From a virus: a DNA stretch of 37,677 bases. How positions within the stretch are numbered: the stretch's first letter is position 1; each line of letters opens with the position of its first letter. The stretch lies in the UHGV virus genome UHGV-0146994; one strand, written 5' to 3'. Both the position numbers and the translations under genes were made by a program. Below, piece by piece: positions 575-37,677 of the stretch. The notes below the pieces were generated by a model. That model made no database searches and had not been told where the DNA came from. It saw only the letters and a program-made list of their open reading frames with translations.

Positions 575-1420
575 CTACCATTCCGGTATATTCACCGGAA
601 TGGTAAAAAATCGTTTTGTTGACCTCAACAAATGCTCATTTAATGAATCAGTTCCCACGTCGTCAATATCCTGGCATTGCTCCCACAGTTGCCCCAGGCT
701 CTTTTTATTTTTCCAGGTATGACACAACTTAATTTCAGCATCTACGAAGGGCTTAATCTGTTCAGGATAGCGCCGCATATTCTCTATTGCATGTGCATCT
801 GGCATGAACATGCACGCCATACAGCTGCAGCGCCCCAAATACTCATAACAAAAATGCGGTTCCAGATGCAGCTCCTTTCCCTGCTCAAACATTTTGCCTT
901 TCTCATAATCCAAGCAAGGCCGGAACCAATGGCAGGTAAAATCTCCTTTTCTTTTTGTCCACAGCGTAGTGCTGTGGTACTCTATTTCCGGCAGCTTCGC
1001 CCGGCTCTTGCTTTCATCCCGGCGCTCCCCAGATATGAAAAGACATTTATTTCCTAGGATATCCCTGTGCGACCGGATCCACTTATCGGTAATCCCCGTT
1101 TTGAGGTACGCCGTGCACCAGCGGTTTTTCATGTCAGGCCATTTCAACCGCTCCTCCAGAAGCAGATTTAAAAAGCCTTTCGGATGCTGCAGCAATACCG
1201 GTTTGATTCCCAGAAATGCCGCCGTCCTGTAAAACATTTTGATATTTTCTGGATATTCGAAACCTGTATCACAGTACAGGAGAAATATCTTATCCTTTGA
1301 GAACTCCTGCAGCGCCCAGTACAATGCCCCTGTACTGTCTATCCCATTGCTGTAGCTTACGATCACGCTGGTATAGTCCGTCTGGACTCCCTCTGTCACT
1401 ATCTTATTTGTTTTTGCCAT
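575..1420 (-). CDS. PAPS reductase family (PP-loop) protein
   Basis: SYSNGIDS PP-loop, DTGFEYPE, RWCT, GERRDESKSR, RCSCMAC. Confidence 0.85.
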   Translation of the reverse strand: MAKTNKIVTEGVQTDYTSVIVSYSNGIDSTGALYWALQEFSKDKIFLLYCDTGFEYPENIKMFYRTAAFLGIKPVLLQHPKGFLNLLLEERLKWPDMKNRWCTAYLKTGITDKWIRSHRDILGNKCLFISGERRDESKSRAKLPEIEYHSTTLWTKRKGDFTCHWFRPCLDYEKGKMFEQGKELHLEPHFCYEYLGRCSCMACMFMPDAHAIENMRRYPEQIKPFVDAEIKLCHTWKNKKSLGQLWEQCQDIDDVGTDSLNEHLLRSTKRFFTIPVNIPEW

Positions 1421-1728: not shown

Positions 1729-1986
1729 CTATTCGTTATAGAACATCTGTAATAACTGTAAACGCCCGTTATATGCTTTATCAGCCTGCTCCATAGCTAC
1801 GTTATATGAATCCGTAGCATATTTCAGCAGATTGTCTACAGCTTTTCTGCGCTTCTGACTCTCCTTTGATGTATAGCCTTTAGCCAGCACATCATTTAAT
1901 CCCTGGCGGCTCATGCCGGTTACTTCACACAACTCATTTACCGTCAGGTCAAAATTGGCAGCATATTCTTTCACGGTCATTTTCAA
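1729..1986 (-). CDS. small HTH-like DNA-binding protein
   Basis: TVNELCEVTGMSRQGL HTH-like segment; flanked by 14-bp sites at 2025-2038 and 1713-1726. Confidence 0.6.
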   Translation of the reverse strand: MKMTVKEYAANFDLTVNELCEVTGMSRQGLNDVLAKGYTSKESQKRRKAVDNLLKYATDSYNVAMEQADKAYNGRLQLLQMFYNE

Positions 1987-8935: not shown

Positions 8936-9350
8936 ATGTAGCCCTCCCGTTCCATCCGTACATTTGTTCGATTTAAGTGGGTGATATAATCATAACTCTT
9001 TCTCTCCTTTCTTTCAAGGATAATCGAACAAATGTTTACTTTTAGTAAATTATTCTCAACGGATAATTTGTATACAATATAATTATAGTATATTTTCAAC
9101 AATTGTGTCTGGTAAAATTTGGCATCAATACTTCTTAATGATTTTTTATAAACTAATTTAAGTATTATTTATATACTTTCCACAACATATTGGTAGTTTA
9201 TGGCTTTTTTTGTCCTCGAATGGTACGTTTTTGACCTTTAGCGGAACTAACAATTTTTAAACTTTGTTACTTTTGCCAACAAGATGCGGTTAAAATAGCC
9301 TGAAGGCATTTTAATAAAATTATATTCGAATGAGGAAGGAGATTTACACT

Positions 9351-10364
9351 ATGGCACTTATTAAATGTCCCGACTGCGGGAAGGAATTTTCAGATCAGGC
9401 AACACGCTGTCCTAATTGTGGCAGGCCTAATTCCATGAACCAGCAGCAACCAAAAACCAGCCCAATCGGAGTTTCCAATTCACCAACTAATGGATACCGC
9501 CCCAATACGGTGACATCCCAATCTGTAAAAAAGGAATCCGGTTTAGGAATCGCTGCACTTGTATTTTCAATCCTTGGCTGTACTTTTATCATAGGAGCCA
9601 TCCTTGCAATCATCGATTTATGCAAAAAGGATGATAATAAAAAGCATACATTATCTAAGGTTGCTTTGATCGTAGCTGGAATATGGTTAATTATTGGGAT
9701 TATCGGCGCTGCAAGTGGCAACGGGAAAGACCCTGAAACAGCAACAAACTCTGCTGCAGTGATAGAATCAGACACTAATGATGTTCTTGAGAAAACGGAA
9801 GAAACAGAACAAAAGGAAATTAAAGAAACGACTTCAGAAGCCAGTGATAATGAATCTTCCATTGAAGCAACTTCAGAAGCTATCAATAAGGAGCCTTCCG
9901 AAGACAATATTCCCACAGAATATAAATCCGCTTTAAATAAAGCTTATACATATAGTCAGACAATGTCTATGTCAAAAGCTGGGATTTATGATCAACTCAC
10001 CTCTGAGTATGGTGAAAAATTTTCTGCCGAAGCAGCACAATATGCAATTGATAATATGGAAGTAGACTGGAAAGCAAACGCATTGGAAAAAGCGAAAACT
10101 TACAGTGATACGATGTATATGTCAAAATTGGGAGTATATAACCAGCTCATTTCTGAATATGGTGAAAAATTCACTGAAGAGGAAGCTCAATATGCTGTAG
10201 ACAATGTCGAAGCAGATTGGAAGAAAAATGCACTTGAAAAGGCAAAAACCTATCAGCAATCAATGGATATGTCTCCCGAAGCAATTCGTGACCAGCTCGT
10301 TTCTGATTATGGAGAACAGTTTACCAAAGAAGAAGCTGACTATGCAATAGAACATCTTGAATAA
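9351..10364 (+). CDS. Ltp-family surface protein (superinfection exclusion-like) with N-terminal zinc ribbon and TM helices
   Basis: CPDC..CPNC; two hydrophobic helices; three repeats of AL.KA.TY...M.MS...YDQL.SEYGEKF..E.AQYA. Confidence 0.85.
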   Translation: MALIKCPDCGKEFSDQATRCPNCGRPNSMNQQQPKTSPIGVSNSPTNGYRPNTVTSQSVKKESGLGIAALVFSILGCTFIIGAILAIIDLCKKDDNKKHTLSKVALIVAGIWLIIGIIGAASGNGKDPETATNSAAVIESDTNDVLEKTEETEQKEIKETTSEASDNESSIEATSEAINKEPSEDNIPTEYKSALNKAYTYSQTMSMSKAGIYDQLTSEYGEKFSAEAAQYAIDNMEVDWKANALEKAKTYSDTMYMSKLGVYNQLISEYGEKFTEEEAQYAVDNVEADWKKNALEKAKTYQQSMDMSPEAIRDQLVSDYGEQFTKEEADYAIEHLE

Positions 10365-10477: not shown

Positions 10478-11854
10478 ATGAAAGATAAGATAATACGCTG
10501 TGCAATCTATGACCGCGTCTCGACAGAGGGTCAGGTGAAAGATGGGCTATCCCTTGATGCCCAGGAGGAGGCCCTTACTGAGTATGCTTTGTCACATCAT
10601 TATAAAATAGTAGATTATTACGCGGATGAGGGGATTACTGCCAGGAAGAAGATGCAGAATCGGAAAGACCTAATCCGGCTGCTGAATGATGTCAAGGCAG
10701 ATAAGATAGACCTCATTCTTGTAACCAAGCTGGACCGCTGGTTCCGAAATATAAAAGATTACCATAACACGCAGGCGATTCTTGAGGCGCATAATTGTAA
10801 CTGGAAAACCATTTTTGAGGAATATGATACATCCACTTCCAATGGCCGATTTGCAATCAATATTATGCTTTCCGTCAACGAAAACGAATGTGACCGGGAT
10901 TCGGACCGTATAAAAAATGTTTTCGAGTACAAGAAAAAACAAAGAGAACATTTGAACGGGAAGCCGGCTTATGGATATATTTCGGTTAATAAAAAGCTTG
11001 TCAAGGATCCTGAAACAAAGTATATAGTTGAGGATACCATTGAGCATTATTTTAGCTGCTATTCAAAAAAAGCAACCGTAAAATATATTCTTAGTAAATA
11101 TGCAAATGAGCAGAATCCGCCAACAATGTATCAGATTAACCGCATTCTGACCTGTGAGACATACACTGGCCGGAAATACGGTATTGATAATTACTGCGAG
11201 GCTTACATAACCCAGGAGCAGTACAAAAAAATAGTTTCCACGTCTGATGCTAAAATCATTCCGCATCAGACAAAACCATTCCTTTTCTCTTCCATGATTA
11301 AGTGTCCGATTTGCGGAAAAAATATGTCTGGTTTTGTGAAGCGCCAGAAATTAAAAAATGGGAATGTCAGCGAGTACAAAAGATATCGCTGCGGAGCAAA
11401 GTTTACAGCATATCACAATGGGGCCTGCATATCAGAGTCAGTTATAGAAGCATATCTGCTGGATAATGTGATGGGCGAACTTAATCTGGAGCTACTGCAG
11501 ATAAAAACAAAGGAACAGGAAGAAAAACAAAAGAAACCTGCTTCCAATCCTGTGAAAATAATGAATGAGATAAACCGGCTGAATCTGATGTATCAGAAAG
11601 GCCGCATAGACGATGAATATTATGACAAACAGTATGCTATACTGAATGAGAAACTCTCTGCCGCCCAACAGCCGCAGGAGCACAGAACCATAGAAAACTA
11701 TACATCTATCATGGAAACATTAAATGATGGCTGGTATGAAATGTATAAAAAGCTTGATATTACCCATAAAAAAGCCTTTTGGAAGGGCATAATAAAGGAA
11801 ATCTATATTGACAAGGAAAGCCGCCAAATATGCGGTTTTAAATTTCTGCTCTAG
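10478..11854 (+). CDS. large serine recombinase (phage integrase)
   Basis: YDRVSTEGQ catalytic Ser, KLDRWFRN, recombinase domain, CPIC...YRC zinc ribbon, coiled coil. Confidence 0.95.
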   Translation: MKDKIIRCAIYDRVSTEGQVKDGLSLDAQEEALTEYALSHHYKIVDYYADEGITARKKMQNRKDLIRLLNDVKADKIDLILVTKLDRWFRNIKDYHNTQAILEAHNCNWKTIFEEYDTSTSNGRFAINIMLSVNENECDRDSDRIKNVFEYKKKQREHLNGKPAYGYISVNKKLVKDPETKYIVEDTIEHYFSCYSKKATVKYILSKYANEQNPPTMYQINRILTCETYTGRKYGIDNYCEAYITQEQYKKIVSTSDAKIIPHQTKPFLFSSMIKCPICGKNMSGFVKRQKLKNGNVSEYKRYRCGAKFTAYHNGACISESVIEAYLLDNVMGELNLELLQIKTKEQEEKQKKPASNPVKIMNEINRLNLMYQKGRIDDEYYDKQYAILNEKLSAAQQPQEHRTIENYTSIMETLNDGWYEMYKKLDITHKKAFWKGIIKEIYIDKESRQICGFKFLL

Positions 11855-11935: not shown

Positions 11936-12265
11936 ATAAATAGCGATTTAGGTGGGTATGAGTTTGATACGATAAACGGAGTCCCCAGTTATAAGGCAGG
12001 TGCAGATGCAGCATGGGTCCCATTTAAGCGGGAGCCAATAATTGAAAAAGCTTCCTTTTCGTGGGCCTATTCACCTTCCCAGACATTTCCTGCAAAGGAA
12101 GGATATAAAATCGTGGGGTTGTATGCAGATATTACAGGCATTAACTCACAAAATGCTGTGAACATAAATTTTGGCATAAGCAAAAACTTAGCAGCTGGTA
12201 GGATATCAATATCAGGGCAGACCTATGTAAATATAATGGGAGCGTTTTATTGTATTTACGCTTGA
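11936..12265 (+). other. silent tail-fibre C-terminal cassette D
   Basis: Open frame INSDLGGYEFDTINGVPSYKAGADAAWVPFK...FYCIYA* starting at site TAAATAGCGATTTA (11937-11950); no own start or RBS. Confidence 0.8.
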
Positions 12266-12276
12266 TAAAGCGGCCT

Positions 12277-12660
12277 TTATGGAATTAACTCAATCCGTAA
12301 CATGATATTAGGATTAACCGTATCTCCTTTGTAAAGTACCTGTAATTTATCAGATGCCAAAGAACTTACATCATAAGTGCCATCCGCTGTTATTAATTGA
12401 GTGCCGCATGTAACCTGATAACCATAAGGCCCCAAATTTGTAATTCTAATTTTTGAATAATTGGAATAATCAAAATTATTAAGCACAAATGTGGAGTAAC
12501 GAGTTACGTTGATACCAGAAAATGCCGCAGATGCTGTGCCATCCATCAGCACCAGTGTATTGCTAAAAGGGAGCCATGCATCAGCACCTTTTTGCCGATA
12601 TACGCCTTTCCCGCCCTGAAGGTCAAACTCAATTTGTCCGTTGGCTAAATCGTGATTTAA
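12277..12660 (-). other. silent tail-fibre C-terminal cassette C
   Basis: LNHDLANGQIEFDLQGGKGVYRQKGADAWLPF...LRIELIP* from site TAAATCACGATTTA (12646-12659); paralog of cassette B. Confidence 0.85.
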
Positions 12661-13920: not shown

Positions 13921-14824
13921 ATGGGACTTACTTATTCTGAATTATTACAAGAATGGTTTAATCATCATACTGTAGAGATCGAAGAATCAACTGCTTATAA
14001 CTACAAAAAATCTCTTCCCTATGTTGCAGAAGTACTGGGACAATATGATATTGAAAAAAATAACAGAGCATATGATATATGACTATGTATTAATCCTGCT
14101 GCATAGTAGCTTGGCTTATTCATCGACTCGTGTATACTGTAAGGTCATAAAATTAAGCCTACGGTATGCATTAAGACGTGGTTATATCCGATACAATCCC
14201 GCAGAATGCGTCAAAATGCCGAAGCGAACTCAGGCGGAAATCCAAGTCTATACATGGCAGGAAATATCCCATCTTATAACCACAGATGGTCCTGACTGGG
14301 TAAAAAATGGTATAATCATTGCTTTCCGAACTGGTATGAGACCCAGCGAGATCTACGCATTAAAATGGACAGATATTAATCTGTCAAAAAATTACATATC
14401 TATTCAACGCGCAATATCTCGATCCGGATCCAAGACAAAACTTACTAAAACGCCTGCGGGAAGAAGGCGTGTTGATATAGATAGCCTTCTAGCACAGCAC
14501 CTTATGGAAATGAAAAAGCACAAACAATTATATCAAAAATATGTTTTCCCCTCCCCACCACATGGCCGCCGTAATTATCGTATTCCATGGAATGTGTCAA
14601 AAATTCTCCACGGAATGTGTGACAAAGCAGGAATTGAATATCGAAATTTTTATTCACTTCGACATTCTCATGCAACCCTACTTCTTGAGATGGACATACA
14701 TCCCAAAATTGTTCAGGAAAGAATGGGACATAGTGATATTAAAATAACTATGGATACATATAGCCATGTTACTCCTACGATACAGCAAAAGGCTGTATCC
14801 GCAATGGAAACAATTCCTATGTAA
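13921..14824 (+). pseudogene. tyrosine recombinase/integrase with +1 frameshift in an A7 tract
   Basis: N-terminal frame MGLTYSELLQEWF...LGQYDIEK joins ITEHMIYDYV only if one A of 14054-14060 is removed; TGMRPSE, YSLRHSHA, GHS and DTYSH catalytic motifs. Confidence 0.8.
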
Positions 14825-17751: not shown

Positions 17752-18138
17752 TTAAATCACGATTTAGCGCAGGGGCAGATCGAGTTTGACGTTGATGCTG
17801 CCGGCAAGGGCTTTTACCGTAAACGAGGTGCTGATACATGGCTCCCTTTTAACAGGAATCTTGTGCTTATGAATGGTACAGCTTCCTATGCTTACTCAGG
17901 AGTCAGCGGTACATACGCAGCATTGTTTGAGCTGGACAATTTTGACTTCACAAATTACAGACAGATTTCAATAAAAAATCTGTCAAATTTTAGCTATGAA
18001 GTAACCTGTGGCACAAAAGTATTTTCGTCAGACGGTACATATGATATAAGCGATTTAATGGCGGCAAAACTTAGGGTTATGTATCATGGTAATGTAGGGA
18101 ATCCGCCCATACAGCTCAGAATAGAACTGATACCGTAA
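17752..18138 (+). other. silent tail-fibre C-terminal cassette B (inverted)
   Basis: LNHDLAQGQIEFDVDAAGKGFYRKRGADTWLPF...LRIELIP* from site TAAATCACGATTTA (17753-17766). Confidence 0.88.
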
Positions 18139-18143
18139 TAGGA

Positions 18144-18614
18144 TTAGGCAGTTATGGCAATGACAGTGCCGGTCCATGTCATAGCCAAACAATGCTGTGT
18201 AGTACCAATACTTAATAATAATTTTCCGGTTGCTGTATTGTAATCTTTGGCTATAGTACATATCCCACCGGCGGTACTACCGAGCCGCAACTGTGCATTC
18301 GAAGGTTCAAAATAGCATGCCACAATTTTGCTGACATCAAGTCCCATATCATTCAGGTCGATTTCATTTTGATATGTATTTCCGCTATTACCCGTGGTGA
18401 CAGTAACTGTTTTGGTTGCTATTTTCATGATACCCTCCTTCAATTCCTGTAAATCGTGAATTAACTGTTTAGTCACCAACGCATCCGGTGTATATCCTGC
18501 CTCAGTAATTGCCGCATTATCGTTTACATTTTTTATAACTTTAGTTGGATTCAATCCGTTGTAATACTTATTCCCCTCTGAATCCTCGATTATCATATCT
18601 TTTACATATGCCAT
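18144..18614 (-). CDS. expressed tail-fibre/adhesin gene: ~50-aa constant N-terminus plus variable cassette A
   Basis: GGAGGG RBS; internal site TAATTCACGATTTA (18463-18450) encoding LIHDL in the same frame as the silent cassettes. Confidence 0.8.
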   Translation of the reverse strand: MAYVKDMIIEDSEGNKYYNGLNPTKVIKNVNDNAAITEAGYTPDALVTKQLIHDLQELKEGIMKIATKTVTVTTGNSGNTYQNEIDLNDMGLDVSKIVACYFEPSNAQLRLGSTAGGICTIAKDYNTATGKLLLSIGTTQHCLAMTWTGTVIAITA

Positions 18615-28626: not shown

Positions 28627-29225
28627 TCTGCTGTCTCCTTTTCTAATTCTTTAATTCTGTTGTGATACTTACTCATATCAACGGTTTTCTTTTCTTCCTT
28701 AACTTCTACGTAATCCGCCCGAACCTCTAACGGCTCCGGCGTCAGTACCACTTCTCCCTCTGCCCTCACCTCAACACTGGTGCCCTCATAACATGGCTGT
28801 TTCCTCTCATCTATGATAGACACTTCCACAAGGTCCATATCCTCCACAAAACGACGCTCTAATGCATCGTTGATATCCTCCTTGCTGGCATCCCGTTCCC
28901 TGAACCCAAATGACCACCCACGGAGTTTTTTCTTCCGCGCCTTGTCAATGACTTCCGAATCCGTGACCTCTGCCCTGGCATGAAGCCCGATGCTGTCCTC
29001 GTACAGTTCCAAGTTGGTACTTGTAGAACCCAGGTTCCGGGTCTTATCATGGTTTAGCAGCAGCTGTACCTCATTATGGCGAAGTGCCCGCTCAAATACC
29101 CCCGGAACAATCTGCTCCACGAAACGTTTTCCGGTCCTCCTGTCCCTCATAGGCCGCGAATCTCTGGCTACGGCATTGACGTAACCTTCAATCACCACGC
29201 TGTCCGCTCTGATTTCAATCCTCAT
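28623..29225 (-). CDS. HK97-family prohead protease
   Basis: IEGY, LLNHD, GWSFGF, EVSI..P.Y.GT. Confidence 0.92.
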   Translation of the reverse strand: MRIEIRADSVVIEGYVNAVARDSRPMRDRRTGKRFVEQIVPGVFERALRHNEVQLLLNHDKTRNLGSTSTNLELYEDSIGLHARAEVTDSEVIDKARKKKLRGWSFGFRERDASKEDINDALERRFVEDMDLVEVSIIDERKQPCYEGTSVEVRAEGEVVLTPEPLEVRADYVEVKEEKKTVDMSKYHNRIKELEKETAE

Positions 29226-30468
29226 TTATCTCTTCACCTTCTTTCTTTTCCAATCCCTCCGGTTCCTGCCCCAGCCCGCCTGTCTGGTTCATGTTCGGCA
29301 TGTAAAATTGTTTGGTTGATGGGTCATATAGCACATCCTGCAATCCCAGGCGTACAAAATCCAACCCTAACGGCGGAAGATTCTCTTTCAGACGAATTTC
29401 ATCAATCTGCATGAATCCATTCTTGCTGGCCGTCTCATAAGCACGGAATCGCTTTTCAATATCCCCCTTGGTAAGCTCCGAAGTATCTGCGGCAAAATAA
29501 AAGGCCCCCTTCTCAGATTCAAGAAGCAGGTCCCGGTTTACGGCACATTCAAATTCTTTTAGTATTGGATTCAGGCAGTATTGAACAAAATTCGTCTTAT
29601 CCTGTTCCGTAGCCCCTCCGTTTATCATGGCAGGCGGCATATTCATCAGTTTGCAGATCTCATCACTGTTGGTCTTTTTATTTTCATTCAGCTGCATCTC
29701 CACAGATGTATTGCTTGCCTCCTGGAACTCAAGCCCCTCATTCAGAATAACAACATTTTCTGTATTATTCTGATACAGGTTCCGCCATGCGTTTTTAAGG
29801 GCATCTATAGCGGTCTGTGCTAATTTCTTAGGTGATTTTATAAATCCCTTCTTATTTCCTCCTGTCTTAACCAGATTCTTCTCATATTCTATGGAATAGT
29901 AGGCAACGCTCAGAACCTCGCTATTCTCATCAATTATACTCTTCCCTGAGCGCCCATCCTCTGTATTCCGGAGCACTTTCAGGAACTCAAATGGCTTATA
30001 CTTCGTCCCCTGAATCATGATGTCGTAATCCTTATATATCGGATCTGACGTAAACATGAAAGACACCTCTGACTCTTTTACGTAATGCAGTGACTTTATC
30101 CGGTTTCCTGTCCGGTTAATGAAAGCATAACCTCCTTTTCCGGTCATATAATCCCTTATTAATGCCCGCTTAAACTGCACCCCGTCCAGGGTATCCCCTG
30201 TATCATCATTCAGGAGCCGTGTTCTTCCATCGTCCTTTACTTCCTCAAGTTTTCCATCCACTATCCTATACAATTTGATTGGTATGGTCGATATTGTCTC
30301 TGTAATCTTGTTTACACAGGCTGCAAAGGCCGGTACATTCATGGCCTGGTCCCTGGTCATACAATCGCTTGCCAGGATGGTCCTTAGCAGGGCATCCCCG
30401 CTAGTCTCTGTTTCAGTCTTTTTCGGTTCCGGCTCTGCCCTCATTCGAAACGGCCACATCTTTATCAT
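29215..30468 (-). CDS. HK97-family portal protein
   Basis: ACVNKI..TI...PI, VILNEG, DEIR..ENLPP; start approximate. Confidence 0.93.
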   Translation of the reverse strand: MIKMWPFRMRAEPEPKKTETETSGDALLRTILASDCMTRDQAMNVPAFAACVNKITETISTIPIKLYRIVDGKLEEVKDDGRTRLLNDDTGDTLDGVQFKRALIRDYMTGKGGYAFINRTGNRIKSLHYVKESEVSFMFTSDPIYKDYDIMIQGTKYKPFEFLKVLRNTEDGRSGKSIIDENSEVLSVAYYSIEYEKNLVKTGGNKKGFIKSPKKLAQTAIDALKNAWRNLYQNNTENVVILNEGLEFQEASNTSVEMQLNENKKTNSDEICKLMNMPPAMINGGATEQDKTNFVQYCLNPILKEFECAVNRDLLLESEKGAFYFAADTSELTKGDIEKRFRAYETASKNGFMQIDEIRLKENLPPLGLDFVRLGLQDVLYDPSTKQFYMPNMNQTGGLGQEPEGLEKKEGEEINED

Positions 30469-33038: not shown

Positions 33039-33424
33039 CCTTCTGCCTCCTGCTCATCAATAATCCTCTTGATTTCCTCGTATGGTATTTGCCCGGCCTC
33101 TGCCATTTCATGATGTATCCCGCATACTGTCAGCAGGTTGTCATCATCCAGGCGTTTATCATAATCGGCTTCTATCGGTAAGGCATGATGAACAGATAAG
33201 TTCTCGTAATTGTACTGCCGGTCTGCGCCATACAGGTTTCGTATGCATATCTGGCACAGGTTCTTGTCACGTTCCCTTATCTTTTCCCGTTTCTCCCTCC
33301 AACGTCTTGAGCTGCGGAAACGGTCTATGTAGGTTATCTTTTTTTGATGCTGCGGCTTCTTTCCACAACTATATTTAGTATCATGTATTTTCCCGCAGTA
33401 TTGACATGATTTAAGCATATGCAC
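33035..33424 (-). CDS. HNH endonuclease (terminase-associated, gp74-like)
   Basis: RDKNLCQIC, VHH, NLLTVC..HH. Confidence 0.9.
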   Translation of the reverse strand: MHMLKSCQYCGKIHDTKYSCGKKPQHQKKITYIDRFRSSRRWREKREKIRERDKNLCQICIRNLYGADRQYNYENLSVHHALPIEADYDKRLDDDNLLTVCGIHHEMAEAGQIPYEEIKRIIDEQEAEG

Positions 33425-33532
33425 CTCTATTAAGGCCTTTCAAAAAATAAAGGCACCTGATTTCTCAGATGCCCTCTTACTTTTTCTTATGTTATCATAG
33501 TATCATACTTAACAATCGAAAAACGGCCATCT

Positions 33533-33940
33533 TTAAATTTCCCCAATTTTTTTTCCTACTTCAAAAATAAACTTTTCGCATACTCTTCTAATCTGGCGCT
33601 CCGAATAGCTGACGCACCTTGGCATCCATCTATATGGCATATTTTTGTACCTTTCTGACCAGAACCGTATCCGTATAATTTTCTTATAATCATCCTCCAG
33701 CTTTAAATAAACATCCTCCACTGCTTCTATTTCTCTTTTGATTCTTTCCATTCTGGGATCGTTAAGTGCGCATACCGTTGCTTCAAGTCTGTTAGAAGGT
33801 AAATTCCCCCTGGGCTGTCCATCATTTACCGGCGTTCCTTCTAAAAGTTCCGTTCTTCTTTCTTCATATAATTGCTTATTTTCTGGATATCTTCTGATAA
33901 CGGCCTGAATAATAGCCCAGCTGTCCCTCTTTATTTTCAT
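33533..33940 (-). CDS. ArpU/RinA-like late transcriptional activator
   Basis: Last gene before packaging; KKIIRIRFW...YSERQIRR sigma4-like HTH. Confidence 0.75.
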   Translation of the reverse strand: MKIKRDSWAIIQAVIRRYPENKQLYEERRTELLEGTPVNDGQPRGNLPSNRLEATVCALNDPRMERIKREIEAVEDVYLKLEDDYKKIIRIRFWSERYKNMPYRWMPRCVSYSERQIRRVCEKFIFEVGKKIGEI

Positions 33941-33974
33941 AACTCCTCCTTTTTATGCCTGCTGCCGCTGGCAA

Positions 33975-34997
33975 TCATGCTATACATGCCTTATGCACCT
34001 GCCGGAGCTGTCCCGACGTCTGTGCAGCATAGTATCCCTTGGTTACTGCCGTGCTTGCATGGCCTAACAGGTCCGCTATATCATCAAGGCTTGCCCCGTG
34101 CTGCCTCAGGCTGGAAGCCATTGTCTTGCGCATAAGGTGCGGATACACTCGGCGCCGCAACTCCGCCTTAGCCTTGATATCCTGCAACAAGTCCCGGAAG
34201 GCGCTCTCATGTATAGGCGTGGCAGGCTTGCGTAAGGACACAAACAGATACGGGCTGTCATCCTGCCGGCTGTCCAGATAGCGCTTGATGTGCACCCGGG
34301 CGGCATCATTAAGATATACCTCCCGGTACTCCCTGTCCTTGTGGCCGTAAATCATCAGCGACCCGGAAACAAAATCTATGTCAGCTATCTTGACATCCGG
34401 CACCTCTCCCACCCTGGCCCCGGTGCTCAGCAGGAATTCAAGCACAGCTCTCTCACGCTTGCCTTTCTGGGTATCCTGGTCGCATGCGGTACGTAGTTCT
34501 TCCACTTCCACACCCTGCAGAAAGTCAATCGGCTTCCGGGGAACCTTCTTTTTGGGAACATTTTCCACCGGATTCTGACTGATAAAATTACACCGGCGCA
34601 ACCATGTGAATACGGATGACAGGAACTGCCGCTCATTGTTGACACTCTGCGGGCTATTGGCCTTAAGCTTGCCCCGCGCAAACTCATTAAGGTAATATTC
34701 AATGTCCGTTGGAACCACATTACGCAGGTTTTTGTGGACTACATCCAGAAACATCCTCGCAGCCCGCATATACTGCTCTATGGTTTTACTGCTCAGGTCG
34801 CGCTTCTGCATGTTCAGGCGGATAGTGTCCAACATATACTGGTTATCATCCAGATCCGTTGACAGCGCAGTTTCCATACGGACCACCTCGACACTGTACA
34901 TTACGGCCAGCAGCACTTGCTCCAATGCGCGGAGCTGTTCCCTATTGATTACTTCCTGCATCTTTAATAACACGTCATTGATAAGCTGTTCTTTCAT
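33975..34997 (-). CDS. XerC/D-like tyrosine recombinase
   Basis: SAM-like N-domain (LS.KTI.QY), STGARVGE, GHKD, YPHLMRKT, LLGH, T..YY; catalytic set intact. Confidence 0.93.
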   Translation of the reverse strand: MKEQLINDVLLKMQEVINREQLRALEQVLLAVMYSVEVVRMETALSTDLDDNQYMLDTIRLNMQKRDLSSKTIEQYMRAARMFLDVVHKNLRNVVPTDIEYYLNEFARGKLKANSPQSVNNERQFLSSVFTWLRRCNFISQNPVENVPKKKVPRKPIDFLQGVEVEELRTACDQDTQKGKRERAVLEFLLSTGARVGEVPDVKIADIDFVSGSLMIYGHKDREYREVYLNDAARVHIKRYLDSRQDDSPYLFVSLRKPATPIHESAFRDLLQDIKAKAELRRRVYPHLMRKTMASSLRQHGASLDDIADLLGHASTAVTKGYYAAQTSGQLRQVHKACIA

Positions 34998-35015
34998 AGT
35001 TTGCCTCCTTCGCGC

Positions 35016-35094
35016 TTGCCTAAAGGACGCAATAATGCTATAATCCTCTTAGGCACAAAGCGGCAGCATTCATCTTGGCGGGTGGGCTGCCGCT
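35016..35094 (+). promoter_or_regulatory. antisense promoter plus hairpin in recombinase leader
   Basis: TTGCCT(35016)-17 bp-TATAAT(35039) with extended TG; stem AGCGGCAGC...GCTGCCGCT at 35059-35094. Confidence 0.5.
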
Positions 35095-35176
35095 ATCTCT
35101 TTGTTCAATTATTTTTCCAATAAATGGAATTAGTTATTGACCTCATGCGCATGAAGGTATACAATAAACATGTAAT

Positions 35177-35190
35177 CGAACATGAGTTCT
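35177..35190. promoter_or_regulatory. LexA (Cheo/SOS) box-like site
   Basis: CGAAC-ATGA-GTTCT matches the Firmicutes GAAC-N4-GTTC consensus; ~180 bp upstream of the recombinase. Confidence 0.55.
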
Positions 35191-35242
35191 GTACCATAAA
35201 GGGGATGCAACCCTGGTGCAGGACTCTTTTCTTATTCAATTG

Positions 35243-35350
35243 TTAATCTAACAACCTGTCCTCATGCCGCATCTTGATACATGCGGCCACGGCCAGTATG
35301 TACGCCGCTGCGAATATGCAGCAGCCTATAATTACAATCACATTAATCAT
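35243..35350 (-). CDS. 35-aa membrane peptide
   Basis: MINVIVIIGCCIFAAAYILAVAACIKMRHEDRLLD; AAGGAG RBS; stop inside site variant TAGATTAACAATTG. Confidence 0.55.
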   Translation of the reverse strand: MINVIVIIGCCIFAAAYILAVAACIKMRHEDRLLD

Positions 35351-35531
35351 CTCTGTGCTCCTTAATTCTTACTTCTACCGTATTCCACCTGCGTCCGCAG
35401 GTCCTACAGCTCCGGCGCCGGACTACCCTTTTAAGGCTCGGCCGATACCGGATATTAATTATTTGGCTGTCGGTACTGCCGCAGGAAGGACATTGTTCGC
35501 CTTCTGCATATTTCATAGACACCCTCTTCAT
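35343..35531 (-). CDS. NrdR-like N-terminal zinc-ribbon protein
   Basis: CPSCG..DSQI...RRRSCRTCGRRWNTVE. Confidence 0.75.
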   Translation of the reverse strand: MKRVSMKYAEGEQCPSCGSTDSQIINIRYRPSLKRVVRRRSCRTCGRRWNTVEVRIKEHRDD

Positions 35532-35788
35532 TCTTCTTTCCTCAACCGTTTTTTAAGTACCATTTGGCATCCGCATTCCGGACAATCCATTGCATCGTAT
35601 ATTTCCGGTTCGGCTGAACTTCCGCTCATTGCTGCGGAAATTCCTCCGCTCATAACCCTGTCTTTTGCAATATATTCTGATTTCGGATAAAACGCCTTTC
35701 CGCATACTTTGCAGGTTATCTTTTTAATATTATGGGTTTCTTCCGGGATGAAAGTCCCCCTTTTTCTCCACTGCCTGTCTCTTCTCAT
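35528..35788 (-). CDS. small Zn-finger-like phage protein, paralog of 287-547
   Basis: Near-identical to 287-547; preceded by site variant at 35802-35815. Confidence 0.8.
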   Translation of the reverse strand: MRRDRQWRKRGTFIPEETHNIKKITCKVCGKAFYPKSEYIAKDRVMSGGISAAMSGSSAEPEIYDAMDCPECGCQMVLKKRLRKEE

Positions 35789-35812
35789 GTCGTTCCTCCT
35801 TCAAATTGTCAG

Positions 35813-36049
35813 TTATTCTGATGCTATAAAGGAACCAATTGCTACCCCAATATAAGCAATAGTTCCTCCTGCCACGCTCGCAAATATGCATTTTAATATT
35901 GTAATAACTATTACTGTACTGGTTAACGTTCCAGTATCAAATGCCGCACAGGCATCCAGTATCGGCTTTATAAATAAAATCCATCCCCCTAAATAAACTC
36001 CTCCAGCAATACTTGCAATGATAATTACAACCCCTATTAATTTCTTCAT
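35813..36049 (-). CDS. two-TM membrane protein (accessory cassette)
   Basis: Hydrophobic ORF MKKLIG...; bounded by sites at 36069-36082 and 35802-35815. Confidence 0.7.
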   Translation of the reverse strand: MKKLIGVVIIIASIAGGVYLGGWILFIKPILDACAAFDTGTLTSTVIVITILKCIFASVAGGTIAYIGVAIGSFIASE

Positions 36050-36135
36050 TTTCCCTATCTCCTTTATATAAATCCTCATTTACCATTCAACAGTTTCCCC
36101 AGGATAATAAGTCGGCTCCTTTTCTAAATCCTCAT

Positions 36136-36882
36136 TTAATGCATTAATATTTCAGGAAATTCCTGTGTCAATGGTTCTCCCCATATGTCCGTCAAACTAG
36201 ATTTCATAAATACTGGAATATCTACTTTGCGGCACTGCTCCACAATATCTTCTATCCACTCACGCTTCGGAATGACCTTATCCTTGCGCCTTCCCGTTTC
36301 CGCGCCAATGATAACCCACTCTACTCCACGAATATGGAAATCTGCAAATGGCTTTAGCAGCGGTTCAATGCTTATAAAAGTCTGAACAGAGTGGTGTGTT
36401 GAGAAAGAAAAATCTGTTCCCACAGGCCCTGTCTGCGACCAACCAAACCACATATTAGGCGGCATATAGCAGTTAAGTAGTTTCTCATACCGCTTTGGAT
36501 TCTTCGTAAGGAATAAATAGTTGTGCTGCGGAGCTTTTCCACATGCCTCAAACACTTCATAAATCCAAGAATCTGGCACCCAATCCCCGAACAGATCAGC
36601 CATTGAGCAGACAAAAATGTTCCTTGCCTTTCGGTTCTGATATTCGTTTAAGCGATATCTATGTAATGTCGGAACGAACCCATATGGGTACGGTTCTGAC
36701 CGCTCCTCCTCTGGCGCGTAAACTTTTTCGTCAAGCACATGGATTTTCCTATCATCCCACTTGTCCCCGTGAGAAGAAAACCTGTTTGCTATCCCTCTGG
36801 CATAACAGTATTCGCAACCATGCAGACAACCGGTAACCGGATTCCATGTGCTATCACACCAATCAATTTTTGTCTTATTCAT
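36136..36882 (-). CDS. DUF5131 / phage Gp37Gp68 family (radical-SAM-like)
   Basis: TKIDWCDSTWNPVTGC..GCEYCYA, IFVCSMADLF, LTKNP, SIEPLL, WVIIGAETG. Confidence 0.92.
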   Translation of the reverse strand: MNKTKIDWCDSTWNPVTGCLHGCEYCYARGIANRFSSHGDKWDDRKIHVLDEKVYAPEEERSEPYPYGFVPTLHRYRLNEYQNRKARNIFVCSMADLFGDWVPDSWIYEVFEACGKAPQHNYLFLTKNPKRYEKLLNCYMPPNMWFGWSQTGPVGTDFSFSTHHSVQTFISIEPLLKPFADFHIRGVEWVIIGAETGRRKDKVIPKREWIEDIVEQCRKVDIPVFMKSSLTDIWGEPLTQEFPEILMH

Positions 36883-37146
36883 AAATTCCCTTTCTGAGTT
36901 AAATTTTCATTTAACTACCATCCCGGTTCATTCACCGGAATGGTAAAAATCGTTTTGTTGAGGTCAACAAAACCTCATTTAAATTATTTAGTTGCAGGTA
37001 TCAGGACACAATATATTGTGTTATACATTTTACATTGCATATATATTGTATATATGTATTGACTTCCTAATACTTTTGTATATAATAAAAGATACAAAAC
37101 GTTACTTTATTGTAAAAACGCATCTGGCAGAAAGAGGAGGACTATT

Positions 37147-37311
37147 ATGTCAAAGCAACCTATCAAACCTGGAACTGACAACAAACCCGCTGGCACCTAT
37201 CATGAGGTAGGCCCAAGAGGGGGACAAATTCCCGATGGACGTACCGTCCACATTGATCGGGGTGATCGTTTACCCCCTACTCAAAAGCCTGGACGTGGTT
37301 GGTCTAAATGA
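37147..37311 (+). CDS. YjzC-family small protein
   Basis: Manual translation MSKQPIKPGTDNKPAGTYHEVGPRGGQ...GDRLPPTQKPGRGWSK; AGGAGG RBS. Confidence 0.8.
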   Translation: MSKQPIKPGTDNKPAGTYHEVGPRGGQIPDGRTVHIDRGDRLPPTQKPGRGWSK

Positions 37312-37342
37312 TGTATGGAAGCCGCTGTAACCGCAGCGGCTT

Positions 37343-37459
37343 TTATATTGCAATTCTCCGCTTCCAGAAGCAAAAACTAAACCCAAAGACTGTAATTTGA
37401 AACCATGCTTCTGCATACCGTCTGCCTTCTTCTTCATATTTCGTGACATAATGATGCAT
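37343..37459 (-). CDS. 38-aa hypothetical protein
   Basis: MHHYVTKYEEEGRRYAEAWFQI...; GAGGAGG RBS. Confidence 0.55.
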   Translation of the reverse strand: MHHYVTKYEEEGRRYAEAWFQITVFGFSFCFWKRRIAI

Positions 37460-37676
37460 TCTCTTTTGACACCTCCTCTCTCTGGTACAGTTCGTGTATA
37501 TCCACATCCAATGCTTCCGCAATGGCCGGCATATACTCCACACGTAAAAGTTTTCTACGTTCATTGAGCATGTTGGAAAATTCCTGTGGGGAAAAACCAG
37601 CCCGTTCCGCGACCACTACCTGTTTCATTCCTTTGGCTGCAAGGATGCGTTTTATGTTGTTGATAATATCTTCATA
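37434..37676 (-). CDS. XRE-family HTH protein, 5' end beyond window
   Basis: NIKRILAAKGMKQVVVAERAGFSPQEFSNMLN...IAEALDV. Confidence 0.85.
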   Translation of the reverse strand, partial: YEDIINNIKRILAAKGMKQVVVAERAGFSPQEFSNMLNERRKLLRVEYMPAIAEALDVDIHELYQREEVSKENASLCHEI

Positions 37677-37677
37677 G

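Follow-up and report, generated by a model that had tools for sequence, protein, structure and literature searches.

In the virus genome UHGV-0146994, a stretch of 37,677 nucleotides that is called the window here at its full length, the accessory zone between the replication genes and a RinA-type late activator is cut by 14-base sites. This raises the question of what these sites do, and whether the tyrosine recombinase encoded beside them acts on them. An earlier note, based on the letters of the sequence, had described this region (33975-36981) as an integron-like cassette array, by which a phage-encoded system captures, excises and reorders early accessory genes. Based on a comparison with related loci, we consider it rather probable that the accessory zone is cut by TAAA-N6-TTTA sites, at which relatives exchange, duplicate and reorder genes via crossovers of a family of phage XerA-like recombinases.

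Recombinase loci were taken from three collections and 230 full-length loci were kept (28 clusters at 60% identity). In the recombinase clade of the window (clade 3), the top gapped word upstream of the recombinase (4 + 4 bases, 6-base gap) was TAAA-N6-TTTA, i.e., 14 bases with inverted arms around a 6-base spacer, found in 44 unique contexts upstream versus 2 downstream of the clade recombinases. For the weight matrix, 59 sites from relatives were used and none from the window; some cassettes are common to these relatives and the window, so the matrix is not fully independent. At 11 bits or more, it matched 4 times in 33975-36986 (300 dinucleotide shuffles: mean 0.12, maximum 2) and 10 times in the full 4,577-base array (300 shuffles: mean 0.32, maximum 2). 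Three matches were found in the remaining 33,100 minus-strand bases (12659, a tail-tip site; 29228; and 6516) and two on the whole plus strand, both tail-tip sites. The array comprises 11 co-oriented sites, counting the 10.4-bit site at 36968-36981, all scoring on one strand, and wraps round the window ends. All six 14-mers listed in the earlier note were present on the minus strand, and five of them are true sites. The last, at 35237-35250, was rejected as an array site, since its TAAA-N6-TTTA pattern is not kept in relatives. The note had also missed six further sites, at 42-2038. A sequence outside the array, TAAA TGAGGA TTGA at the portal-protease junction (29215-29228, 13.1 bits), may be a chance match or a stray site.

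As had been noted, most array sites overlap stop codons or precede ribosome-binding sites (RBSs), and the region contains two gene-less mini-units. The sites were enriched over the stop-codon and RBS background: in clade 3, gene starts with a site amounted to 44 out of 116 in the array zone, 0 out of 105 among late genes and 1 out of 78 far upstream. The corresponding counts were 159/466, 9/527 and 8/255 in clade 0, the largest clade (102 loci, 93 used), whose enzyme is about 38% identical to that of the window. The site-plus-GGAG pattern occurred twice in each of two host chromosomes (6.4 and 5.6 Mb); in one of these, G056, both matches fell between two array-type recombinase genes.

Breakpoints of synteny among relatives fell at the sites, as the earlier note had proposed: the array zones of 19 close loci gave 154 unique alignment ends, 83 of which were located at most 8 bases from a site, against 3.2% expected. 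A motif-blind search of the breakpoints recovered tTAAATgA..atTTAa in about 77% of 85 ends in clade 3 and AAAtTaa.ATTT in about 58% of 260 sampled ends in clade 0; clades 4 and 6 had no breakpoint ends. Scanning also revealed sites in the clades without a breakpoint motif; in clades 1 and 2, these lie downstream of the enzyme gene. Between junction partners, identity dropped to near background just beyond the 14-mer.

Whole units were found to move between these sites, and relatives showed both changes in their order and duplications. The 224-base unit at 293-55 was 98-99% identical, both sites included, in L010, L172, L250, L257, L260 and L275, with different neighbours in different loci; the recombinases of L250, L257, L260 and L275 are only 34-35% identical. 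The DUF5131 cassette was found, at 99.7% identity, between different neighbours in L173. Two window units were in reversed order in L010, a tandem duplicate lay between equal spacers in L012, and the window itself holds two copies each of an 86-aa gene and of a hairpin mini-unit. Contigs of relatives from sequencing runs were also compared, the best share of window phage words in any run being 0.20. Contig pieces from gut metagenomes of separate studies stopped at 36135, 36900-36912, 36982, 39-56, 287-294 and 574. In a 37.4-kb relative from run X6, the PAPS-reductase-like gene was joined to the site at 55; this relative did not have the window's block between two TTGAAC sites, and its 86-aa unit was placed later. 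Overall, these are cassette-boundary sites that are widespread in gut phages and apparently undescribed: no description of this site and recombinase system was found in the literature covered (subscription papers and supplements lay outside this coverage), and the matching passages of a paper on C. clostridioforme prophages (PMC11318856) do not mention such sites.

Joined sites tended to share their spacer. Pairs with one flank in common kept the spacer in 22/36 and 23/30 cases in clade 3 (13% at random), and in 30/51 and 25/49 cases in clade 0 (6% at random), these pairs not being independent. Among flank families seen with at least two partners, a single spacer was observed for 5 out of 13 left and 9 out of 13 right families in clade 3 (shuffle means 1.2 and 1.3; maximum 5), and for 10 out of 25 and 16 out of 28 families in clade 0 (shuffle means 1.0 and 1.6). 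Over 17 arrays, 74 of 78 ordered pairs followed the spacer-class order TAACCC, TTGAAC, TGAGGA, CTGAAA, TGAAAA, and of the four pairs that did not, three were in the window; TAACCC was always first, far from the recombinase. In these comparisons, spacer matching is a tendency, not a rule.

The recombinase gene at the array end is intact, as the earlier note had stated. By sequence and predicted fold, the best PDB match of its product was archaeal XerA (5hxy); its profile aligned to XerA almost without gaps, whereas IntI4 (2a3v) was matched in two stretches, and the profile comparison revealed no IntI insertion in the catalytic domain. Scores were below the cut-offs for IntI (TIGR02249, 62 bits versus 265; NF011946, 23 versus 435) and also below those for XerC and XerD. 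The catalytic residues R195, K220, H287, R290, H313 and Y323 were kept in every non-gapped row of 177 homologs (177, 177, 175, 174, 174 and 175 rows, respectively, the rest being gaps). The invariant tyrosine, Y323, lies one residue beyond the usual spacing from H313, and Y322 varies (residues 322-323 at 34029-34034). Because the window carries a serine integrase, the recombinase is dispensable for integration.

The sites cluster next to this gene. In a control anchored on terminase (80 loci, of which 30 were unique with enough upstream DNA), only one locus out of 30 had the enzyme, and only that one had RBS-linked sites. In a second control, anchored on Rep (80 loci, 52 classified by whole record; L451 left out), at least one site was present in 14 out of 19 enzyme-positive versus 10 out of 33 enzyme-negative loci. 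In the cultured Clostridium scindens phage phiCs5676-1 (L293, OR574845.1), the stretch 36127-38090 contains a recombinase gene of 38% identity and, after it, three sites at the borders of small genes. Of 29 loci returned by an exact-pattern scan of viral contigs, 8 had an array-type recombinase in the 12-kb locus and 21 did not; most of the latter look like chance matches, but L263 has a true cluster. L249, a single locus from a ParB search, had sites and no recombinase in its 19 kb. Two host genomes contained 18 and 20 tyrosine-recombinase matches, and 3 of the 18 in G056 were near-full-length array-type enzymes, so that action of the recombinase in trans is plausible; a portal search marked no prophages in G056. 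That the neighbouring recombinase is the enzyme, as the earlier note had supposed, appears likely from sequence, except that G010 (L445), a 100% complete record, carries ten sites without it.

The same arms were observed on inverted site pairs around putative tail tips, so called from their position; no PHROG match was found for them. The window phage has four tips over two inverted pairs, each of which encloses convergent gene ends that lack a start. In the pair at 17753-18463, the minus-strand site (18450-18463) lies inside the gene 18144-18614, the plus-strand site is at 17753-17766, and both have the spacer TCACGA. In each of four relatives (G001, G003, G004 and G005), one inverted pair was found whose arms are the same and whose two spacers are equal. 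The window and these four relatives have inverted crossover sites, one of them in the expressed gene, and alternative 3' ends, as in a shufflon. Three tip types took the expressed position in one phage and the silent position in a second. In L275 (6239-6870), a double-tip segment was joined to the last array site, one tip being 94% identical to the expressed tip of the window; in L482, the same tip start followed the tail-type spacer TCAGAA. In a contig from run X6, the match stopped at the site at 18450, and a 35-base piece resembling the window's silent tip was found inside its own segment. When the tail-site pattern was searched in 40 more distant records, a loose match was obtained in 21, but clear inverted pairs were not seen. 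The strongest case for the arms as binding sites of the recombinase is made by the tail sites, whose motif is read in frame within a gene and serves neither as a stop nor ahead of an RBS; a coding constraint (L-N-x-x-L) could contribute to this motif.

No dedicated invertase was found next to the tips in G001, G003, G004 and G005, and no resolvase-family gene in any of five records. The only tyrosine recombinase seen in G003 and G005 is of the array type (records 87% and 85% complete); G001, G002 and G004 have a second, weaker match, likely the integrase. In the window, a second tyrosine recombinase gene separates the lysin gene from the silent tips, at a distance of 1.3 kb from the silent pair. 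It had no strong match in G001-G005 and little or no cover in four runs, and as a query it returned one locus; it is out of frame and not common to the relatives examined. As the general enzyme, it was rejected. In passages of the paper on the Rin shufflon of bifidophages (PMC6109161), tail receptor-binding tips are likewise exchanged by a XerD-like enzyme that has no arm-binding domain and acts at short sites, and an inverted locus without an adjacent recombinase is also noted. There, rix is an asymmetric 11-bp repeat and rin is next to the tips, whereas in the window the tip sites share their arms with the early-gene array and the candidate enzyme is about 15 kb away. Tail-fibre inversions are described as common (PMC9881135).

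In the mechanism that we propose, one recombinase subunit would bind each arm and strands would be exchanged across the 6-base spacer, which would serve as an address, as sites with equal spacers would recombine best. When two phage or prophage genomes share a cell, a crossover between them would swap blocks slot by slot. Units would be deleted, inserted or duplicated by crossovers at equal spacers, either inside a single genome or involving an excised circle, and inverted pairs would flip tail tips. Occasional joins between unequal spacers would break the spacer order, and the enzyme would act also in trans on prophages without their own copy. With arms and spacers that supply stop codons and sit just before RBSs, such exchanges would leave whole, translatable genes.

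Several observations weigh against this mechanism. Out of the 154 alignment ends, 71 were away from scored sites, some of them 10-35 bases off or inside genes, and the breakpoints of clades 1, 2 and 5 yielded no motif (17-20 ends each). For spacers, the left-flank result in clade 3 was borderline, 5/13 being the shuffle maximum and 8 of the 13 families having more than one spacer, and shared ancestry could partly explain the conserved order. The terminase-anchored control is confounded by the hosts of the loci, and the Rep-anchored control is only moderately supportive (at least two sites in 8/19 versus 7/33 loci; Fisher p = 0.13, rank test p = 0.006). The ten sites of G010 are on the plus strand, seven of them with an RBS, and its only such enzyme is a lambda-type integrase; G013 (L412) has three sites and G006 (L263, 75% complete) four, also without an array-type recombinase. 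Since G010 has ten sites and no such enzyme, the enzyme is not needed in cis for arrays, and since arrays also occur in prophages lacking it, the link between enzyme and sites is, on present sequences, correlative. Moreover, a stop codon is present within the spacer or arms of nearly all array sites, so that translation shapes the motif too. The arms, with 4-5 conserved bases, are short for a tyrosine recombinase site; those of Xer recombinases have 11 bases. Finally, the catalytic step of the recombinase at the sites is one that we infer.

At mosaic gene borders of lambdoid phages, short conserved linker or boundary sequences occur, which are thought to serve homologous recombination. The sites of the window could be stop-to-RBS linkers that offer micro-homology for ordinary or illegitimate recombination, the recombinase having another job such as genome dimer resolution at a site of its own. 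This is unlikely in our view. Micro-homology also predicts spacer matching and agrees with the overlap with stops, the position before RBSs and the existence of arrays without the enzyme, and a phage with ParA, ParB and a plasmid-like Rep could use a resolvase; however, junctions have only about 14 bases of common DNA, the motif is absent from late-gene starts and, with GGAG, found only twice per host chromosome, and the symmetric arms are fixed while the centre varies in classes. The in-frame arms of the inverted pairs have no linker role, and no annealase was found among the open reading frames (ORFs) scanned, which did not include every ORF. Unlike the lambdoid linkers, the window's 14-base inverted-arm motif has spacer classes and also flanks inverted segments. 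Still further from what we expect, at the level of a remote chance, is that the sites are operators of a regulator, possibly the window's recombinase-fold protein itself, with breakpoints following passively. The sites do sit just before RBSs, and SPbeta, also a temperate Firmicutes phage, combines a recombinase-fold repressor, MrpR, with a repeated intergenic element, SPBRE, to which it binds, according to passages of PMC10516654. MrpR, as described there, has lost the catalytic residues, whereas all six are kept here, and operators would leave both the tail-gene sites and the base-precise junctions unexplained.

The remaining two alternatives accept that the sites recombine. A host Xer-type enzyme could act on them, as XerC/D do on pdif modules, with the phage gene as a passenger. 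We find this quite improbable, since the 11-base XerC and XerD arms are absent, the outer bases and spacer classes differ by enzyme clade (which may track host or detection bias) and the sites cluster next to the phage gene. The arrays in prophages without the enzyme would fit a host enzyme, but the three array-type copies in G056 could act on such arrays in trans. Further points in its favour are the AA-N6-TT geometry, which is like that of dif sites, the number of tyrosine-recombinase matches in the two host genomes, and one cassette that moves between phages with 34% identical enzymes. The pdif/dif modules of Acinetobacter Rep_3 plasmids are accessory modules between inverted-arm sites with 6-bp spacers, shuffled between replicons, with recombination mainly between identical or near-identical spacers (passages of PMC13141974). 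As described there, the arms of pdif sites are 11 bp long and bind XerC and XerD, the orientation of the sites alternates around C and D modules, and the enzyme is host XerC/D. The window differs by 4-5-base arms (conservation of about 14-16 bases in all), array sites on one strand, a phage element and a phage-encoded XerA-like candidate enzyme; spacer matching is seen as a tendency in sequence comparison. By analogy, the system would work most like pdif modules, and may be a variant of spacer-matched module exchange that departs from them in arms and orientation. A true integron-like platform, from which single cassettes are excised as circles and inserted at one fixed site, newest first, is very improbable. 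The cassettes are co-oriented and mostly promoterless, their order changes between L010 and the window, TAACCC forms a special first-in-array class, and the block between equal TTGAAC sites (573 to 55) resembles an inserted circle. Yet the spacer-class order is fixed and many different junctions change, not one; this order and the shared spacers at joined sites fit slot-by-slot exchange better than stacking at one attI, and the integron-style capture of the earlier note is not supported as worded. Its view that the system is distinct from attC integrons stands: besides the missing IntI insertion, five single sites with their flanks folded no better than shuffles (z -1.95 to 0.2), and only the mini-units folded strongly. 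With integrons, as treated in parts of PMC8618304 and PMC8138268, the window shares tandem small cassettes, mostly of unknown function, beside a tyrosine recombinase, and arrays without an enzyme (CALIN-like); it differs by lacking the IntI insertion and a folded attC, and by its conserved spacer-class order.

The leader of the recombinase gene contains a GAAC-N4-GTTC box, as the earlier note had reported. The SOS control of the recombinase at which that note had hinted is not supported: the box follows, at 13 bases, a promoter match on the plus strand that points away from the recombinase, it overlaps one arm of a covarying hairpin, and it was found in 13 out of 14 unique clade 3 leaders versus 0 out of 71 clade 0 leaders. 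If LexA binds the box, the simplest target would be a small antisense RNA, not the recombinase promoter. Two promoter-plus-hairpin units (35016-35242, plus strand), candidate small RNAs, run antisense to this leader and precede the genes of the recombinase and the late activator; they are conserved, with covarying stems (two-sided changes in 3 out of 12 pairs of the hairpin at 35016-35112). An Rfam search of 33400-37677, with E up to 1, returned no match. Short tandem AAATGGAAATT repeats, variable in number, were observed in the leaders of several relatives; in L010 they lie some 140-115 bases ahead of the recombinase gene.

The coordinates of the array and of the other features are given in Table 1. 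The unit with the HTH (helix-turn-helix) and YjzC genes takes the first position in L010. The two copies of the hairpin mini-unit agree in 71 out of 83 columns, and the centre of the first palindrome is CC in one of them but GG in the second, as though it had been inverted. The mini-unit at 36083-36124 is probably a scar, the 3' end of a lost gene; it can be read as the final codons of a protein that starts within the site, which suggests a gene cut at a chance internal site. The two copies of the 86-aa gene are alike in 219 out of 261 columns, and atlas look-ups of the 86-aa and 72-aa cassette proteins gave no named family. In PADLOC, the DUF5131 protein matched two candidate models, PDC-M41B and PDC-M30B; SspD/DndC was the match of the PAPS-reductase-like protein, and PDC-M69A a weak match of the HTH protein; a defence function was not adopted from these matches.

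Table 1. Positions of the array and of further features in the window
Feature	Position	Strand	Remarks
Site TAAA CAACCC TTTA	2025-2038	minus	5' end of array; 15.7 bits; L183 alignment spans site to site
85-aa gene	1729-1986		after site 2025-2038
Site TAAA TAACCC TTTA	1713-1726	minus	17.0 bits; first-in-array spacer class; order test
PAPS-reductase-like ORF	575-1420		3' end holds site 629-642
Site TAAA TGAGCA TTTG	629-642	minus	16.1 bits; within 3' end of PAPS-reductase-like ORF
Hairpin mini-unit, second copy	574-628
Site TAAA TTGAAC TTTA	560-573	minus	16.8 bits
86-aa CxxC cassette gene, first copy	287-547	minus	no named family
Site TAAA TGAGGA TTTA	280-293	minus	22.5 bits
72-aa cassette gene	48-266	minus	in 224-base unit at 293-55
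Site TAAA TTGAAC TTTA	42-55	minus	19.3 bits; contig pieces end at 39-56
HTH gene and divergent YjzC gene	36982-37677	minus	737-base unit, continuing at 1-41 over window ends
Site TAAA TGAGGT TTTG	36968-36981	minus	10.4 bits; L001 alignment stops at 36969; breakpoint in relatives
Gene-less mini-unit, two hairpins	36914-36967	minus	fold z -6.0 and -5.3
Site TAAA TGAAAA TTTA	36900-36913	minus	21.9 bits; contig ends 36900-36912
DUF5131 cassette gene	36136-36882	minus	Pfam PF07505
Site TAAA TGAGGA TTTA	36125-36138	minus	21.3 bits; contig pieces of runs X1 and X5 stop at 36135
Gene-less mini-unit	36083-36124	minus	open frame from upstream site to stop at next site; unmatched in other loci
Site TAAA TGAGGA TTTA	36069-36082	minus	15.7 bits
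78-aa hydrophobic, likely membrane, cassette gene	35813-36049	minus	weak phrog_34548
Site TAAC TGACAA TTTG	35802-35815	minus	13.5 bits; L006/L014 alignment begins here
Last unit: 86-aa CxxC protein, 57-aa zinc-ribbon protein, 35-aa hydrophobic ORF	35243-35801	minus
Sixth site of the earlier note, rejected	35237-35250	minus	9.2 bits; edge of conserved leader
Predicted small RNA pointing into array	35137-35242	plus	promoter match TTGACC-17-TACAAT, box, hairpin with T-run
GAAC-N4-GTTC box	35178-35189
Predicted small antisense RNA in recombinase leader, putative function	35016-35112	plus	promoter match TTGCCT-17-TATAAT, hairpin
XerA-like simple tyrosine recombinase, 340 aa, candidate enzyme	33975-34997	minus	Pfam PF00589 and PF13495
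RinA-family late activator	33533-33940	minus	then HNH, terminase and head genes (context)
Inverted site pair, predicted invertible tail-tip segment	17753-18463		two convergent tips behind collagen-like tail fibre gene
Second tyrosine recombinase gene	13921-14824	plus	no arm-binding domain; out of frame near 14054-14061, A-run
Second inverted pair, predicted silent store	11937-12659		spacers TCACGA and TAGCGA; two start-less tips; adjoins serine integrase
Large serine integrase, likely integration enzyme	10478-11854	plus	context

By its gene content (terminase, portal, protease, capsid, tape measure and lysis genes), the window is a temperate siphophage, with a large serine integrase, a repressor, Rep, ParA and ParB. 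An Ltp-family superinfection-exclusion lipoprotein with three repeats (9330-10364) adjoins the serine integrase. The window is a circularly permuted, apparently complete phage genome, because its ends join in frame (minus strand, position 1 into 37677, through the HTH gene) and the relative L001 aligned across the 1/37677 junction over 777 bases at 96% identity. The closest recombinases in named genomes were from Eisenbergiella, Clostridium sp., Hungatella, Lacrimispora and Enterocloster, from which a host among the Lachnospiraceae is likely.

The neat breaks of phage mosaics at gene borders are an old open question, to which the usual answer is random joining followed by selection. It is conceivable, if somewhat short of an even chance, that temperate gut phages of Lachnospiraceae have their own addressed exchange system, in which a XerA-like family acting in cis and in trans would use one 14-base site for both slot swaps and tail-tip flips. 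If true, the mosaicism of phages at gene borders would have a dedicated enzymatic cause that differs from both integrons and pdif modules. Since the site is defined, the junctions are base-precise and there is a candidate enzyme, programmed mosaicism becomes testable with one gene and a reporter plasmid, and a recombinase working on 14-base sites with orthogonal spacers would be a useful tool. As the family is common in Lachnospiraceae prophages, it could shape the variation of gut phages in accessory genes and host range.

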